Positions 22,353-64,000 of a stretch of 64,000 nucleotides of DNA are shown here, in pieces; the stretch's first letter is position 1; every line of letters begins with the position of its first letter. Both the position numbers and the translations under genes were made by a program. The notes under the pieces are model-generated. The model saw nothing but the letters and a program-made list of their open reading frames with translations, was not told the DNA's origin and made no database searches. Source of the stretch: Octopus vulgaris (Eukaryota); contig OX597824.1 of NCBI GenBank assembly GCA_951406725.2, forward strand, positions 60,078,001 through 60,142,000. The letters are read 5' to 3'.

Positions 22353-22560
22353 GGGAGAGATTACGAAAAAAACAAAAGACGAAGACAGGTGGTGTACAAA
22401 ACAAACAGATGTATTAGTATAACGCTCGGGAATAGAAAAAGTCTTTTACGTTTCGAGCCTACGCTCTTCTACAGAAAGGGACACAGAAAAAACAAGGAGA
22501 GAAAAAAATGTGTGTAGTAGCTAACGATCTATCATAGCAACTAGTGCCAGACAGATGTAT
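22352..22560 (-). mobile_element. Short (TA)n-associated element with hammerhead-like core (Penelope pLTR-like); copies at 53770-53960 and 62640-62830
   Basis: Near-identical ~190-bp sequence at three positions, each adjacent to (TA)n. Minus strand cttt-CTGTAGA-a-GAGC gtag GCTC-GAAAC-GTA-aaag. Confidence 0.65.
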
Positions 22561-49336: not shown

Positions 49337-49503
49337 CTTGATGAATGTACTGGAATTGGTTGCCTGCAAACCAAGTGTTCTGAGGACCACTAATGGACTG
49401 AAATGTGTTCCATACAGCTTTTGTAGACCATCTATAGCGGCAACAATAGGCAAAACATCTCTTTGGCGTTGTGATTCATATGACAACAGATGGTTTAAAG
49501 AGC
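49337..49503 (-). CDS. COQ6: COQ6 penultimate coding exon
   Basis: ttctgtag| (G)SLNHLLSYESQRQRDVLPIVAAIDGLQKLYGTHFSPLVVLRTLGLQATNSSTFIK |GTGATT. Resembles human HLTGYETERQR..LKRLYS..SPLVLLRTWGLQATN; phase fits the previous exon. Confidence 0.95.
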
Positions 49504-52872: not shown

Positions 52873-52915
<43 letters not shown>

Positions 52916-53085
52916 TAACGTAAAGTGTACTAGCCATCTGAATGTGGCTAGCCACTGGGGGTGGGGTGTTACTGACGCTTTTAGCCCCAAGAGATAGACG
53001 TCTCCAGCTGGCCTTAGAAAACAATTTCAGTGCCCTTGTGTTATTTGCAAAGGGAGGTCATCCTCCCTCGAAAACCTAAGTGATA

Positions 53086-53130
53086 CATACGGACTATAGT
53101 TTCAAGGTTTTTGCCTCTCGTCAACGCATG
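53086..53130 (-). ncRNA. Same hammerhead motif, minus-strand copy (sense to COQ6 pre-mRNA)
   Basis: Exact reverse complement of 53493-53537. Further copies in the duplicated block at 61927-61971 (-) and 62361-62405 (+). Confidence 0.75.
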
Positions 53131-53492
53131 GTAAACACCGGTTTTCAATGAAGGAGACCTTTGCAAATAATATTTAACGTTTTTCCCAGCAACCACAGTC
53201 ACTGATTTAGAAAAACTGTCTGAAAGCATTAATAAATCTCCGAACGAGATATAAACAGTAACCGCTCGACAACGTAAAGTGTACTAGCCATCTGAATGTG
53301 GCTAGCCACTGGGGGTGGGGTGTTACTGACGCTTTTAGCCCCAGGAGATCGACGTCTCCAGCTGGCCTTAGACACAATTTCAGTGCCCTTGTGTTATTTG
53401 CAAAGGGAGGTCATCCTCCCTATAGTTTCAAGGTTTTTGCCAACGTTAAATATTATTTGCAAAGGTCTCCTTCATTGAAAACTGGTGTTTAC

Positions 53493-53537
53493 CATGCGTT
53501 GACGAGAGGCAAAAACCTTGAAACTATAGTCCGTATG
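53493..53537 (+). ncRNA. Minimal type I hammerhead ribozyme motif (U3 variant) in 354-bp repeat unit
   Basis: CATGCG-TTGACGA-GAGG caaaaa CCTT-GAAA-C TATA GTC-CGTATG. Stem I CATGCG/CGTATG, core YTGANGA, stem II, GAAA, palindromic stem III ACTATAGT, GTC cleavage triplet. Confidence 0.75.
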
Positions 53538-54069
53538 TATCACTTAGGTTTTCGAGGGAGGATGACCTCCCTTTGCAAATAACACAAGGGCACTGAAATT
53601 GTGTCTAAGGCCAGCTGGAGACGTCGATCTCCTGGGGATAAAAGCGTCAGTAACACCCCACCCCCAGTGGCTAGCCACATTCAGATGGCTAGTACTTTAT
53701 GTTGTTGAGCGGTTACTGTTTATATCTCGTTCGGAGATTTATTAATGCTTATATATATATATATATATAGGGAAAGTTTACGTAAAAAAACAAAAGGCGA
53801 AGACAGGTGGTGTACAAAACAAACAGATGTATTAGTATAACGCTCAGGAATAGAAAAAGTCTTTTACGTTTCGAGCCTACGCTCTTCTACAGAAAGGTAC
53901 ACAGAAAAAACAAGGAGAGAAAAAATGTGTGTAGTGGCTAACGCTCTATCATGGCGTCTGACACACACACATATATATATTAGGTATCATAAGAATTTAT
54001 AAACTTTCAAGAGTGTGTGTGATAATTCATTTTTGGAATTGGGTCTCAAAGTCCATACAAAGCTTGACA

Positions 54070-55515
54070 TAACTATCGCCCCGTCAGTCTTACAAGCTGC
54101 ATTGCCAAACTGATGGAATCCTGTTTCAGAGAAACCCTCTGGAACTTCTGGAAGTCTCACAGCCTCATCCAGCTGTCACAATTCAGATTTATTCCTAACT
54201 CCAGCTGCTGTAATCAACTCATCGAGTTTCTTGAGGACGTTACCCAAATCACTGATCGCGGATCCTAGGTGGATGTTGTTTACCTGGACTTTGCTAAGGC
54301 TTTTAACTCTGTGCCACACAAAAGACTTATGGTGAAGCTTTCTGTGTTGGGTGTAAGAGATGAACTCTATAACTGGTTGAAGTCTTTTATTTTCGGCCGA
54401 AAAGAGGTTGTCACAGTTCTAGGACAGCACTCTTCGCCCTATGAGATGGCATCTGGTGTACCACAGGGATCTGTTCTTGGCCCCCTTTTATCTGTTGCAT
54501 ATGTTAATGACATTGATGCCAACTTAAAGAATGCCACAGTGCTGAAATATGCAGATGACATCAAGCTGTACCTTGAAATAAAGAGGTCAAATCCTGTACA
54601 CTATAGATCCCTATTGCAAGCAGACCTGGACACAATGCAGCAGTGGATCATGGACTGGCAACTAAAGCTGGCTGTGGGCAAATGTACCACCATGCATTTT
54701 GGGAGGAGAAACCCAGCGTCCACCTACTCCCTCCACAATACTAGTCTCAAAAAGTCTTCGTGTGAACATGACCTGGGTGTTATTGTCGACAGTGATTTGC
54801 GTTGGACAAAACACATCGCTAAAATTGTCAAGAAGGCTGAGGGTGTCTTGGCATCACTCACCAAATCCTTTGTGAGCCGCTCTCCGGCTATCTATCTGCG
54901 GCTTTATATAGCTATGGTAAAACCTCACCTGGTATTTGTATCACCGGTATGGAACCCCTATCTTGCCCAGGATATCAATCGTCTGGAAGCCATTCAGTGA
55001 CGTGCAACCAAAAGAATACCCTCCATCAGGCATTTGCCATATCCTGAACGCCTTACTTCCCTGGGCATGGACACATTGAAACTCCGACGTCTGGCAGCTG
55101 ACTTGGCAGACACCCATAAAATTATTAACCATCTTACAAACAATAACTCTGAGCACCTTTTCAAACTCCACCCATCTAACACCTGTGGACATATTTACAA
55201 AGTCAGAAAACAGCACAGCTCCCATGACTTCAGGAAACATTTTTTCACGCTGAGAGTTGCTGAAGCCTGGAACAAACTGCCGGCATCAGTTGTTAGTTGT
55301 CGGAGCACTGCATCCTTCAAAACTTCCATGCTTTCTGAGATTCGCCAACACTACACCTGATTTTCTCCCCTCCATACACACACAAGCATGTATCTGACTC
55401 ATACATTGTTCGCTTTCCAGACATTTTTACAATACTGCATGTACTTTATATGCACTTTCTGACAAGTTGTGGTGCACCTGAGCACTGTATACAAAAATTT
55501 CATCATTATTATTAT
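54070..55515 (+). mobile_element. 5'-truncated CR1/L2-group LINE (reverse transcriptase pseudo-ORF plus 3' UTR)
   Basis: NYRPVSLTSCIAKLME, VDVVYLDFAKAF, SGVPQGSVLGP, YADD, SPVWNPY, R..FFTLRVAEAWNKLP. Premature stops at 54266 and 54998; ends in an (ATT)n tail. Confidence 0.92.
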
Positions 55516-57109: not shown

Positions 57110-57225
57110 CTAAATCACTGCCTTGATTTACTGCTTCCAGTAATTTGTCAGAAAGACAAGTAACATCAGCAAAACCAAGGTTCACTCCTTGACCAGCCAA
57201 TGGATGGATTCGATGGGCAGCATCC
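57110..57225 (-). CDS. COQ6: Ubiquinone biosynthesis monooxygenase COQ6, internal exon (GD FAD-binding motif)
   Basis: ttttttacag| (G)[38 protein letters not shown](G) |[22 protein letters not shown] is the UbiH/COQ6 signature. Confidence 0.95.
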
Positions 57226-59704: not shown

Positions 59705-60970
59705 ATAACCTCCAAACCTTCTAATATATTTATTTGGATGTACAAGACATCAGAATGGATGGTTTAATATCAGATCCATAAAGAGAGGATACCAAAAATA
59801 CAGAAAACATTGAAAAGAATGGAACAGAATCAGACCCAAAACAGGCTTATACCAAACACACAGAAGACCTAACACAAATCTGTGAAATAAATAAGACAGA
59901 ATCACATCTTCAACATGGGAGATCTATTCACAGAAACCTGTAGTAAGTTGAATTTACTTCTTTCAAAAATTGATACAATCTTTGCAAACATTGCTTTAAC
60001 AATAAATATGATCCAAACACAAAATATTCTCTCTAAAAATAATCAAGCAAACACAACTGACAACACAAATCTTTTGACGGGACCACCCCAATCACAAAGG
60101 ACAACAAATAACGAAACAAAAACTGACACAAACCAAGAAAAACCTTCAAAACCTCCAAGACTGGAACAAACTTCTAAACCAACGTAAACATGCTTATTGG
60201 AAAAGCATATGCTGTAAGAACATAGCTAACATATACCAAAACTGGTGGGACATGAAGAACCCAATACTCCCTAGAAAATTCCTTATCAAAGAAATAAGAG
60301 GTGAAACACTAGAAGAAACAACAATACATGCAAACCTAGCCCTTTGCCGACTAGAAACGGAAATTTCCCTTCTACAAACACAAAGTTTACACCAGGAAGA
60401 TAAGATTAAAACAATTGATCGTCATAATGGCCGAAATAACAGAAAGGAACAATAACCAAAACAAAGAAAAACTACAACAATTATGGAAAGAGGATACCAA
60501 ATGAGAGGAGGAAAGATCCAGAATTATGTGGACCAAACAACAGGAGTAGTTTTTAAACTACGAAAAGAACTATGGGGAAAAATCAATTATGAAGACAAAA
60601 AAACTACCAAAACAAATGAAAAGATACAACAAACCAACATCACGAACATATTGGACTCCCAGACATCCAAATAAGCCCTACCAAATACAAACCAAAAACC
60701 CGCTCCTTACACTGCCGAATCTCCCAATAAACAGACACACAAAATATGAAAGACGACCATCAACCCAAAACCCTACAAAGACAAACACACAAGCAGCAAG
60801 ACGAGCATGATACATACAACCAACAACCTATAACACCTACTACTAAAAGGCCTCAAATTTACACCCACACCCACTCCAAATCTCATAGAACTAAAAACTG
60901 ATATAGACAACTTCAGCCGCCACCTCCGCCTTATGGAATTCTTTGAAAATAAAGAAACAGTAGATAACTC
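59705..60970 (+). mobile_element. Degenerate 5' part of a Penelope-like element
   Basis: A/C-rich broken ORFs. 60834-60960 encodes HLLLKGLKFTPTPTPNLIELKTDIDNFSRHLRLMEFFE, resembling the KGLxFxPTP...D...F.R.LRL..FF N-terminal motif of Penelope-like ORFs. Starts after a (TA)n tract. Confidence 0.7.
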
Positions 60971-61236: not shown

Positions 61237-61336
61237 NNNNNNNNNNNNNNNNNNNNNNNNNNNNNNNNNNNNNNNNNNNNNNNNNNNNNNNNNNNNNNNN
61301 NNNNNNNNNNNNNNNNNNNNNNNNNNNNNNNNNNNN
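61237..61336. other. Assembly gap (100 N)
   Basis: Run of exactly 100 N. Confidence 1.
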
Positions 61337-64000
61337 TGTTAGAACTTGAAGGAATGGAACTAAACACTGAAATGCATTTTGTTTGATACTCTACTGATTC
61401 TATCAAACTAATCATCCAACTGGAATAAATATTTAATTAATTAGTAAATCTGGCTGTGTGGTTGAGAAGTTTGCATCACAACCATGTGGTTTTATATTCA
61501 GTCCCACTGTGTGGCACTTTGATCAAGTGTCTGCTACTAAAGCTTCAAGTTAGCAACAGCTTTTTGAGAGTGGATTTTGTAGACAAACTGAAGGACATCT
61601 GCCATAAGCATATATACATACATATACATGCATGCATCCATACATACACACACACACACACATTCAGATGGTGCTCTTAGCGCTCCACTACCATGGATGC
61701 CAGTCATGCGGTGCTGTCATCGAATTTGATATATATATATATATATATATATAAATATAACGTAAAGTGTACTAGCCATCTGAATGTGGCTAGCCACTGG
61801 GGGTGGGGTGTTACTGACGCTTTTAGCCCCAAGAGATAGACGTCTCCAGCTGGCCTTAGAAAACAATTTCAGTGCCCTTGTGTTATTTGCAAAGGAGGTC
61901 ATCCTCCCTCGAAAACCTAAGTGATACATACGGACTATAGTTTCAAGGTTTTTGCCTCTCGTCAACGCATGGTAAACACCGGTTTACGATGAAGGAGACC
62001 TTTGCAAATAATATTTAACGTTTTTCCCAGCAACCACAGTCACTGATTTAGAAAAACTGTCTGAAAGCATTAATAAATCTCCGAACGAGATATAAACAGT
62101 AACCGCTCGACAACGTAAAGTGTACTAGCCATCTGAATGTGGCTAGCCACTGGGGGTGGGGTGTTACTGACGCTTTTAGCCCCAGGAGATCGACGTCTCC
62201 AGCTGGCCTTAGACACAATTTCAGTGCCCTTGTGTTATTTGCAAAGGGAGGTCATCCTCCCTCGAAAACCTAAGTGATACATGCGGACTATAGTTTCAAG
62301 GTTTTTGCCAACGTTAAATATTATTTGCAAAGGTCTCCTTCATTGAAAACCGGTGTTTACCATGCGTTGACGAGAGGCAAAAACCTTGAAACTATAGTCC
62401 GTATGTATCACTTAGGTTTTCGAGGGAGGATGACCTCCCTTTGCAAATAACACAAGGGCACTGAAATTGTGTCTAAGGCCAGCTGGAGACGTCGATCTCC
62501 TGGGGATAAAAGCGTCAGTAACACCCCACCCCCAGTGGCTAGCCACATTCAGATGGCTAGTACACTTTATGTTGTTGAGCGGTTACTGTTTATATCTCGT
62601 TCGGAGATTTATTAATGCTTATATATATATATATATATAGGGAAAGTTTACGTAAAAAAACAAAAGGCGAAGACAGGTGGTGTACAAAACAAACAGATGT
62701 ATTAGTATAACGCTCAGGAATAGAAAAAGTCTTTTACGTTTCGAGCCTACGCTCTTCTACAGAAAGGTACACAGAAAAAACAAGGAGAGAAAAAATGTGT
62801 GTAGTGGCTAACGCTCTATCATGGCGTCTGACACACACACATATATATATTAGGTATCATAAGAATTTATAAACTTTCAAGAGTGTGTGTGATAATTCAT
62901 TTTTGGAATTGGGTCTCAAAGTCCATACAAAGCTTGACATAACTATCGCCCCGTCAGTCTTACAAGCTGCATTGCCAAACTGATGGAATCCTGTTTCAGA
63001 GAAACCCTCTGGAACTTCTGGAAGTCTCACAGCCTCATCCAGCCGTCACAATTCAGATTTATTCCTAACTCCAGCTGCTGTAATCAACTCATCGAGTTTC
63101 TTGAGGACGTTACCCAAATCACTGATCGCGGATCCTAGGTGGATGTTGTTTACCTGGACTTTGCTAAGGCTTTTAACTCTGTGCCACACAAAAGACTTAT
63201 GGTGAAGCTTTCTGTGTTGGGTGTAAGAGACGAACTCTATAACTGGTTGAAGTCTTTTATTTTCGGCCGAAAAGAGGTTGTCACAGTTCTAGGACAGCAC
63301 TCTTCGCCCTATGAGATGGCATCTGGTGTACCACAGGGATCTGTTCTTGGCCCCCTTTTATCTGTTGCATATGTTAATGACATTGATGCCAACTTAAAGA
63401 ATGCCACAGTGCTGAAATATGCAGATGACATCAAGCTGTACCTCGAAATAAAGAGGTCAAATCCTGTACACTATAGATCCCTATTGCAAGCAGACCTGGA
63501 CACAATGCAGCAGTGGATCATGGACTGGCAACTAAAGCTGGCTGTGGGCAAATGTACCACCATGCATTTTGGGAGGAGAAACCCAGCGTCCACCTACTCC
63601 CTCCACAATACTAGTCTCAAAAAGTCTTCGTGTGAACATGACCTGGGTGTTATTGTCGACAGTGATTTGCGTTGGACAAAACACATCGCTAAAATTGTCA
63701 AGAAGGCTGAGGGTGTCTTGGCATCACTCACCAAATCCTTTGTGAGCCGCTCTCGGCTATCTATCTGCGGCTTTATATAGCTATGGTAAAACCTCACCTG
63801 GTATTTGTATCACCGGTATGGAACCCCTATCTTGCCCAGGATATCAATCGTCTGGAAGCCATTCAGTGACGTGCAACCAAAAGAATACCCTCCATCAGGC
63901 ATTTGCCATATCCTGAACGCCTTACTTCCCTGGGCATGGACACATTGAAACTCCGACGTCTGGCAGCTGACTTGGCAGACACCCATAAAATTATTAACCA
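61337..64000 (+). repeat. Near-identical duplicate of 52475-55131 immediately after a 100-N gap
   Basis: Both copies start tgttagaacttgaagg and are colinear through the SINE, hammerhead repeat and RT. Differences are a few SNPs, microsatellite lengths and small indels. Confidence 0.95.
62940..64000 (+). mobile_element. Duplicate copy of the CR1/L2-group LINE fragment
   Basis: Same RT sequence with an additional 1-bp deletion near 63754 that shifts the frame. Confidence 0.9.

Follow-up and report, generated by a model that had tools for sequence, protein, structure and literature searches.

How does a short non-coding repeat that carries a hammerhead motif come to lie, in one partial tandem and one inverted copy, within the intron of a host gene? 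The ribozyme may cut tandem transcripts of such a unit into monomers that circularize before they are reverse transcribed, or the machinery of a Penelope-like element (PLE) may insert an RNA that was never cut. The question is raised by a locus of Octopus vulgaris (GCA_951406725.2, contig OX597824.1, positions 60,078,001-60,142,000 of the forward strand); the whole stretch of 64,000 nt is called the window below, and all feature positions are window-based. The insert at this locus is the product of one recent insertion of a 354-nt repeat that is abundant and ORF-less. On balance, it was probably placed into (TA)n by the endonuclease and reverse transcriptase (RT) of a PLE acting in trans, with uncut RNA as the template.

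The insert is 834 bp long (52917-53750) and lies between two (TA)n tracts in a 7.6-kb intron, the exons on either side being consecutive COQ6 exons on the minus strand (Table 1). An earlier sequence-only reading of this DNA had placed the unit inside a COQ6 intron and had noted its (TA)n flanks. Both statements hold, with two consecutive exons that match TIGR01989 around the intron and a tract on either side of the insert. The segment 52475-55131 recurs at 61337-64000 with 97.9% identity over 2.7 kb, starting directly behind an N gap (61237-61336), and the window therefore displays the insertion twice; this duplicate is likely the other, uncollapsed haplotype. At 54269-55360, 500 bp from the insert, lies the 3' portion of an ORF for a LINE reverse transcriptase (Pfam RVT_1, E 2.6e-23), which is seen again at 63139-63780.

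Table 1. Positions of the insert, its predicted RNA features, its surroundings and the second hammerhead-like element in the window.
Feature	Positions	Strand	Remarks
Left target, (TA)n tract	52875..52916	.	
Arm 1, copy A, complete 354-nt unit	52917..53270	-	3' end adjoins (TA)n; GC 43%
Arm 1, copy B, partial tandem, unit positions 156-354	53271..53441	-	5'-truncated inside stem II
Arm 2, copy C, inverted, 5'-truncated, unit positions 90-354	53442..53703	+	
47-nt tail, unit positions 1-47	53704..53750	+	continues past arm 1's 3' end; at one insert end only
Right target, (TA)n tract	53751..53770	.	common to the insert and the second, unrelated hammerhead element downstream
Type I hammerhead in A	53086..53130	-	predicted cut after 53092; sense to COQ6 pre-mRNA
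Type I hammerhead in C	53493..53537	+	predicted cut after 53531
Predicted long stem I extension	53040..53172	-	about 35 further pairs; hammerhead at tip
COQ6 exon downstream of host intron	49337..49503	-	TIGR01989 positions 377-429, E 2.4e-13
COQ6 exon upstream of host intron	57110..57225	-	TIGR01989 positions 340-377, E 4.5e-15
Second version of the insertion	61759..62620	.	A2 61759-62111, B2 62112-62309, C2 62310-62620; within the 2.7-kb duplicate
Motif of second element	53896-53861, 62766-62731, 22478-22443	-	minimal type I hammerhead-like

Unit positions are counted on the hammerhead-sense strand, with position 1 at 53270 and position 354 at 52917. The earlier reading had described a period of 354 bp followed by a flip in orientation, and both features are found: 52917-53018 and 53271-53372 are 98% identical, and the inverted arm occupies 53442-53750. 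It had also taken the tandem to consist of complete units, which turned out to be wrong, the tandem amounting to 1.56 units with copy B partial. The two arms both face (TA)n with their 3' ends outward, one stopping at unit position 354 and the other continuing 47 nt beyond. In copy B the cut site has been lost to a 27-nt deletion (53420-53421, 2-nt microhomology) in the first version only, while copy B2 of the second version is intact over unit positions 156-354. Copy B lies on the COQ6 sense strand, and the deletion of its cut site is compatible with either chance or selection. Private changes are few (four in A, two or three in C, none or one in B), and A differs from B and C together at four sites in either version.

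The four insert ends fall at unit positions 354, 156, 90 and 47. None coincides with the cut site (179), across which both arms continue, and this implies a template that was either uncut or religated. The 354-nt ring holds no ORF of more than 80 codons, its longest stop-free run being 80 codons, and no RT or GIY-YIG ORF occurs within the insert. In size and composition (354 bp, 43% GC) the unit falls within the range of retrozyme-type elements, which are ORF-less, about 150-450 bp long and below 50% GC. The insert also shows every mark of an insertion by an autonomous, endonuclease-bearing (EN+) PLE, namely a partial tandem, an inverted 5'-truncated copy, a one-sided tail and a microsatellite target. 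The earlier suggestion of a retrozyme-like, ORF-less unit that inserts by a Penelope-type route is thus supported by the anatomy and by the absence of an ORF.

Insertions of EN+ PLEs as described by Craig et al. (2021, PMC8557442), Frangieh et al. (2024, PMC11167929) and Cervera and de la Pena (2014, PMC4209133) likewise combine a partial tandem with an inverted, 5'-truncated neighboring copy, a one-sided tail and a microsatellite target, and their hammerhead lies near the 3' end as it does in the octopus unit. The octopus unit differs in having no RT/GIY-YIG ORF and in its tail of 47 nt, the one-sided tail described in PMC8557442 being 30-40 bp. By analogy with these elements, the template at the octopus locus would have been an uncut RNA of more than one unit, transcribed from a tandem donor. 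A GIY-YIG endonuclease would have nicked the (TA)n tract on both strands, as the protein of the anole PLE does with AT-rich DNA (PMC11167929). Reverse transcription would then have begun inside the RNA at unit positions 354 and 47, 47 nt apart, with one start for each DNA strand; the anole PLE likewise uses two starts within its RNA, and these delimit the tail (PMC11167929). One cDNA would comprise 1.56 units (A, then B) and the other 0.87 unit (the tail, then C), and the two cDNAs would finally have been joined back to back. Both start sites, taken as fixed at 354 and 47, are deduced from a single insertion. Two facts run counter to this reading: the tail exceeds the published 30-40, and no mobilizing PLE is linked to the unit.

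Cutting by the hammerhead would be unnecessary for such an insertion; the anole PLE inserts equally well with a dead hammerhead (PMC11167929). Any cutting would require a dimer and would probably be weak, given the U3.G8 pair (see below). The insert ends are compatible with a circular template, since reading round a religated circle would likewise cross the cut site. An uncut linear RNA and a monomer circle would both account for the present data, including the few changes that distinguish A, B and C. The linear, uncut RNA is preferred because U3.G8 predominates in the core and because a dead hammerhead did not impair insertion in vitro (PMC11167929).

An apparent period of 354 bp could also be created by a single slip-back of the RT at this one locus, an idea that would suit the presence of merely 1.56 units and the fact that arm C begins at 53181, where a few other contigs break off. 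Public sequencing runs bear on this point. The stretch is present in 20 of 24 listed runs (four organism labels, ten studies), none of these carriers being on record as RNA. Contigs of four runs from two of the labels were compared with the unit, two of them DNA runs and two guessed to be RNA. Unit-matching contigs number 945 and 855 in the DNA runs and 53 and 24 in the RNA-like runs, and their identities to the unit range from above 99% to below 90%. The head-to-tail joint (53270 to 52918) recurs in all four runs, in 7, 1, 1 and 2 contigs, with a short side of more than 30 letters only in contigs of run X20. Among the 32 pieces listed out of 1907, diverged ones bridge 53181 in runs X3 (n=2) and X20 (n=2), one X12 piece bridges the tail end, and one of the two X20 pieces covers everything between the cut site and the tail end. 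The joint in every run, together with the bridging pieces from two organism labels, argues that the 354-nt ring is a property of the family and no one-off slip. A slip at this locus is largely refuted by the bridging contigs and retains hardly any probability. Head-to-tail repetition is found in many genomic copies. Since the joint also occurs in DNA, the contigs of the RNA-like runs say nothing about expression or circles. In three runs, contigs carry a different 18-letter stretch across the joint (53267 to 52932), a sign of a subfamily that differs in its 3' end.

The same contigs bear on whether the insert could be the end region (pLTR, possibly in tandem) of an autonomous PLE whose ORF was lost by 5' truncation. 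Hammerheads in the pLTRs of PLEs have a small palindromic helix III and often occur as single truncated copies or as opposite-strand pairs 100-700 bp apart (PMC4209133), a description that resembles the octopus locus. In addition, a recurrent exit from the unit into related foreign sequence occurs at 53181, which is the first base of arm C, in two contigs of run X1 and one of run X3, the two DNA runs. Against such an origin, the sequence upstream of the hammerhead is the previous unit and no ORF, both at the locus and in diverged pieces elsewhere, and at most 1% of the aligned DNA contigs continues into unlike sequence (shares of 0.01 and 0 in the DNA runs, and of 0.08 and 0.57 in the RNA-like runs). 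The 24 loose ends listed of 223 are mostly indel variants of the unit; some pieces do continue into unlisted sequence (for example one in X3 and one in X20). The motif argues in the same direction, having a helix I of 6 bp, a helix II of 4 bp and no extra base after A9 as in canonical retrozymes, unlike the minimal PLE motifs described in PMC4209133. An origin as the truncated end of an autonomous PLE is therefore regarded as improbable. The family behaves as ORF-less, and no abundant ORF-bearing parent appears among the contigs, which are short and often branching, so that a rare parent is possible and could be missed. Along the unit, summed contig depth dips at 53146-53217 and does not change abruptly at the cut site; this measure cannot rank the parts of the unit. 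The exits at 53181 could possibly mark a transcript start, a junction with a parent element or the target site of another retrotransposon.

What, then, is the state of the ribozyme? The complete copies were said in the earlier reading to contain a 45-nt type I hammerhead with a self-complementary stem III. The motif is indeed present in both A and C, and its stem III is a palindrome. In A, the motif consists of a stem I of 6 bp, the core UUGACGA, a stem II of 4 bp closed by G.U, GAAA and the palindromic stem III. The assignment to type I is sound as regards the order of the three stems and the NUH cut site, with all 45 Rfam positions aligned and no broken pair, but not as regards the core, where a departure went unremarked. 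The usual core is C3-U4-G5-A6-N7-G8-A9 with a Watson-Crick 3-8 pair, whereas position 3 is a U opposite G8 in all four complete motifs of the window. A second departure from the usual hammerhead is G10.1.U11.1. At the insert, the complete hammerhead occurs only in A and C, which are on opposite strands, and no strand carries two complete ones.

The check with Rfam Hammerhead_1 (RF00163) that had been proposed did not come out in favor of the motif, which scored 17.6 bits against a gathering threshold of 34 (E 0.053 on 121 bases). Hammerhead_1 was likewise absent from the Rfam results of a 16-kb scan and from a gathering scan of the whole window. A strict hammerhead scan returned four matches in the window, all of them copies of the unit motif, and none in any of 40 shuffles, with thresholds that were set post hoc; the hammerhead pattern matched no stretch in metagenome contigs and none in viral contigs. 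An Rfam match to whalefall-1 (18.8 of 37 bits, four broken pairs) was treated as chance. The natural variant reported for the 3-8 pair is U3-A8 (PMC4209133; PMC3088659), and the single changes C3G and G8C abolished cleavage of a PLE hammerhead (PMC11167929). A literature search returned nothing on the activity of a U3.G8 core. Judging from the C3-G8 requirement described in PMC11167929 and PMC3088659, U3.G8 presumably lowers activity.

Folding predictions suggest that the unit as a whole is highly structured. The linear unit has a z of -3.89, with none of 100 shuffles equally stable, and the predicted circular form has an MFE of -106.6 and a z of -5.1 (none of 60 shuffles), in agreement with a stable, highly self-paired ring. 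This excess of structure over shuffles is mainly due to the long extension of stem I. A hairpin pointed out previously (gggagg-atga-cctccc) is missing from the best fold of the unit, in which its bases extend stem I instead. A lone motif is predicted to prefer an inactive fold (minimum -9.0 kcal/mol, versus -3.7 kcal/mol for the active one). With two motifs, the unconstrained co-fold minimum is a double hammerhead with an 8-bp intermolecular stem III (-20.4 kcal/mol), which lends predicted support to the dimer mode envisaged in the earlier reading. In the in-register dimer of whole units, the double hammerhead lies 5.0 kcal/mol above the minimum.

In the cycle of a classical non-LTR retrozyme, such double hammerheads would cut tandem transcripts, the resulting 354-nt monomers would circularize, and a Penelope RT would copy the circle for more than one round. 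The size of the octopus unit, its 43% GC and its self-paired ring resemble the elements described in PMC7229834, the double hammerhead of the in-register dimer also counts in favor of this cycle, and the small number of sites at which A, B and C differ is compatible with a single template. Sequence variation within the family, taken from unphased variants at a 3% listing threshold, can be read on both sides. The change U11.1C, which restores the usual G-C pair, is seen in 19% and 9% of summed depth, and G8A, which gives the known U3-A8 pair (PMC4209133, PMC3088659), in 13% and 12% of summed depth. However, no C3 variant appears at the 3% threshold, and U3.G8 dominates. G8A also sits at a CpG and need not be compensatory, the same C>T change being found at 3 of the 13 CpG sites of the unit. 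Nor is the density of variable positions lower in the motif (6 of 45) than outside it (25 of 308). Three of four changes at paired positions within the 45-nt motif keep the pair and one breaks it, and several variants break pairs in the long stem I extension, the variants being unphased in both cases. Taken together, these variants do not point clearly to selection on the ribozyme. Finally, eight of nine predicted Xenopus dimers failed to cleave in vitro (10.64898/2026.07.22.740005).

Cutting into monomers followed by circularization is not supported at the octopus locus, given its U3.G8 core and the absence of any insert end at the cut site. The complete retrozyme cycle is considered possible but rather unlikely. 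The favored reading of PLE insertion from uncut RNA can be carried one step further. A retrozyme-type family that is abundant in several octopus-like genomes, with a majority of broken U3.G8 cores, might have spread through Penelope start signals and not through cutting or circles; unit position 90 (53181), at which contigs of two organisms exit from the unit, would then be the start of its own transcript and arm C a copy of the full-length primary RNA. This extension is doubtful and is offered as an unlikely but specific proposal.

The orientation of the arms has consequences for the host transcript. Along the COQ6 strand the antisense of C precedes the other two copies, and pairing with B or A is predicted for it; in the pre-mRNA this antisense arm would pair with the sense arms and hold the ribozyme off. 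In the host-strand insert of the first version, forcing the ribozyme of A costs 58.6 kcal/mol. In the second version, A2 could act in cis only on B2, at a cost of 91.9 kcal/mol; on the strength of these costs the COQ6 intron is predicted to stay uncut. Sequestration would be incomplete, since the lone A2 ribozyme of the second version is forced at a cost of only 5.3 kcal/mol. The inverted arms in the COQ6 pre-mRNA (minus strand) are also predicted to form a long dsRNA with about 82% of bases paired. A-to-I editing is extensive in cephalopods, and this dsRNA is likely a substrate for it.

How does the octopus unit compare with known retrozymes? The metazoan non-LTR retrozymes of Cervera and de la Pena (2020, PMC7229834) are likewise ORF-less units of about 350 nt with less than 50% GC, high copy number and head-to-tail joints, and they likewise carry one type I hammerhead per unit, a weak palindromic helix III and a self-paired predicted ring; the sizes given are 350-390 bp in mussel and 330 and 350 in axolotl. 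The octopus locus differs from these in consisting of 1.56 units plus an inverted arm and no plain array (the word "inverted" is absent from the main text of PMC7229834), in its U3.G8 and G10.1.U11.1 core, and in that cleavage and the circle are known here as predictions only. The main text of PMC7229834 includes no cephalopod family.

Li, Clavereau and Pollet (2026, 10.64898/2026.07.22.740005) proposed the same origin and mobilizer, with animal retrozymes as non-autonomous derivatives of PLEs. The evidence presented there is co-occurrence in vertebrates and pLTR homology, to which the octopus locus adds the footprint of an insertion in a mollusc. The octopus locus lacks what that study takes as the mark of an active element, two consecutive units with complete hammerheads: such a pair is absent at the locus, copy B being without the 5' half of the motif. 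The verdict reached here is that the octopus unit is a passenger of Penelope elements of the animal non-LTR-retrozyme type, with cutting and the circle as predictions only. A literature search found no description of an octopus retrozyme family among the papers it returned, and the family may already be deposited in repeat libraries. The element class, the dimer mechanism and the Penelope footprint were already known separately. The octopus unit extends the animal retrozymes to cephalopods, and an ORF-less hammerhead unit with the full Penelope footprint gives structural support to a partnership that had been argued from co-occurrence and homology. Because U3.G8 is the majority core and A8 and C11.1 occur as natural variants, the family also offers a convenient test of whether spread depends on ribozyme activity.

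Which PLE might have served as the partner? A degenerate ORF at 59705-60970 had been put forward in the earlier reading as a Penelope relic and possible mobilizer. It contains stops and frameshifts, ends at the start of the RT region and resembles a predicted Octopus sinensis protein; for a neighboring ORF piece, the best protein match comes from Octopus sinensis (90% identical). The last 44 codons of the relic match 171 proteins, with E up to 0.001. Eight long ones, chosen by length from the 150 listed of these 171, were scanned, and matches to RT were found in six, to a C-terminal GIY-YIG in four and to both in two, indicating that the relic is the front part of a Penelope-type ORF. No longer relatives of this front part were found. 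The identification as Penelope therefore stands, but the relic shares no DNA similarity with the unit (only chance matches of 9-17 nt, best E 1.6) and for that reason cannot be named as its partner.

The octamer motif is an element of snRNA-type promoters, and two one-mismatch octamer matches in the unit were considered as a promoter of its own. The two matches are the two arms of one stem, and shuffles contain at least one match in 316 of 1000 cases and at least two in 53 of 1000; a promoter of this kind is not supported.

A second, unrelated hammerhead-like element of 180-200 bp lies beside (TA)n at 53771-53952, at 62641-62822 and at about 22353-22535. Its core reads CUGUAGA (altered at U in the position 5-6 region), with an extra base before stem II and a palindromic stem III of 2 bp. 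Two of the loci are 95% alike, and two copies do not co-fold into a double hammerhead. This element is likely the end of another Penelope family that struck the same (TA)n tract.
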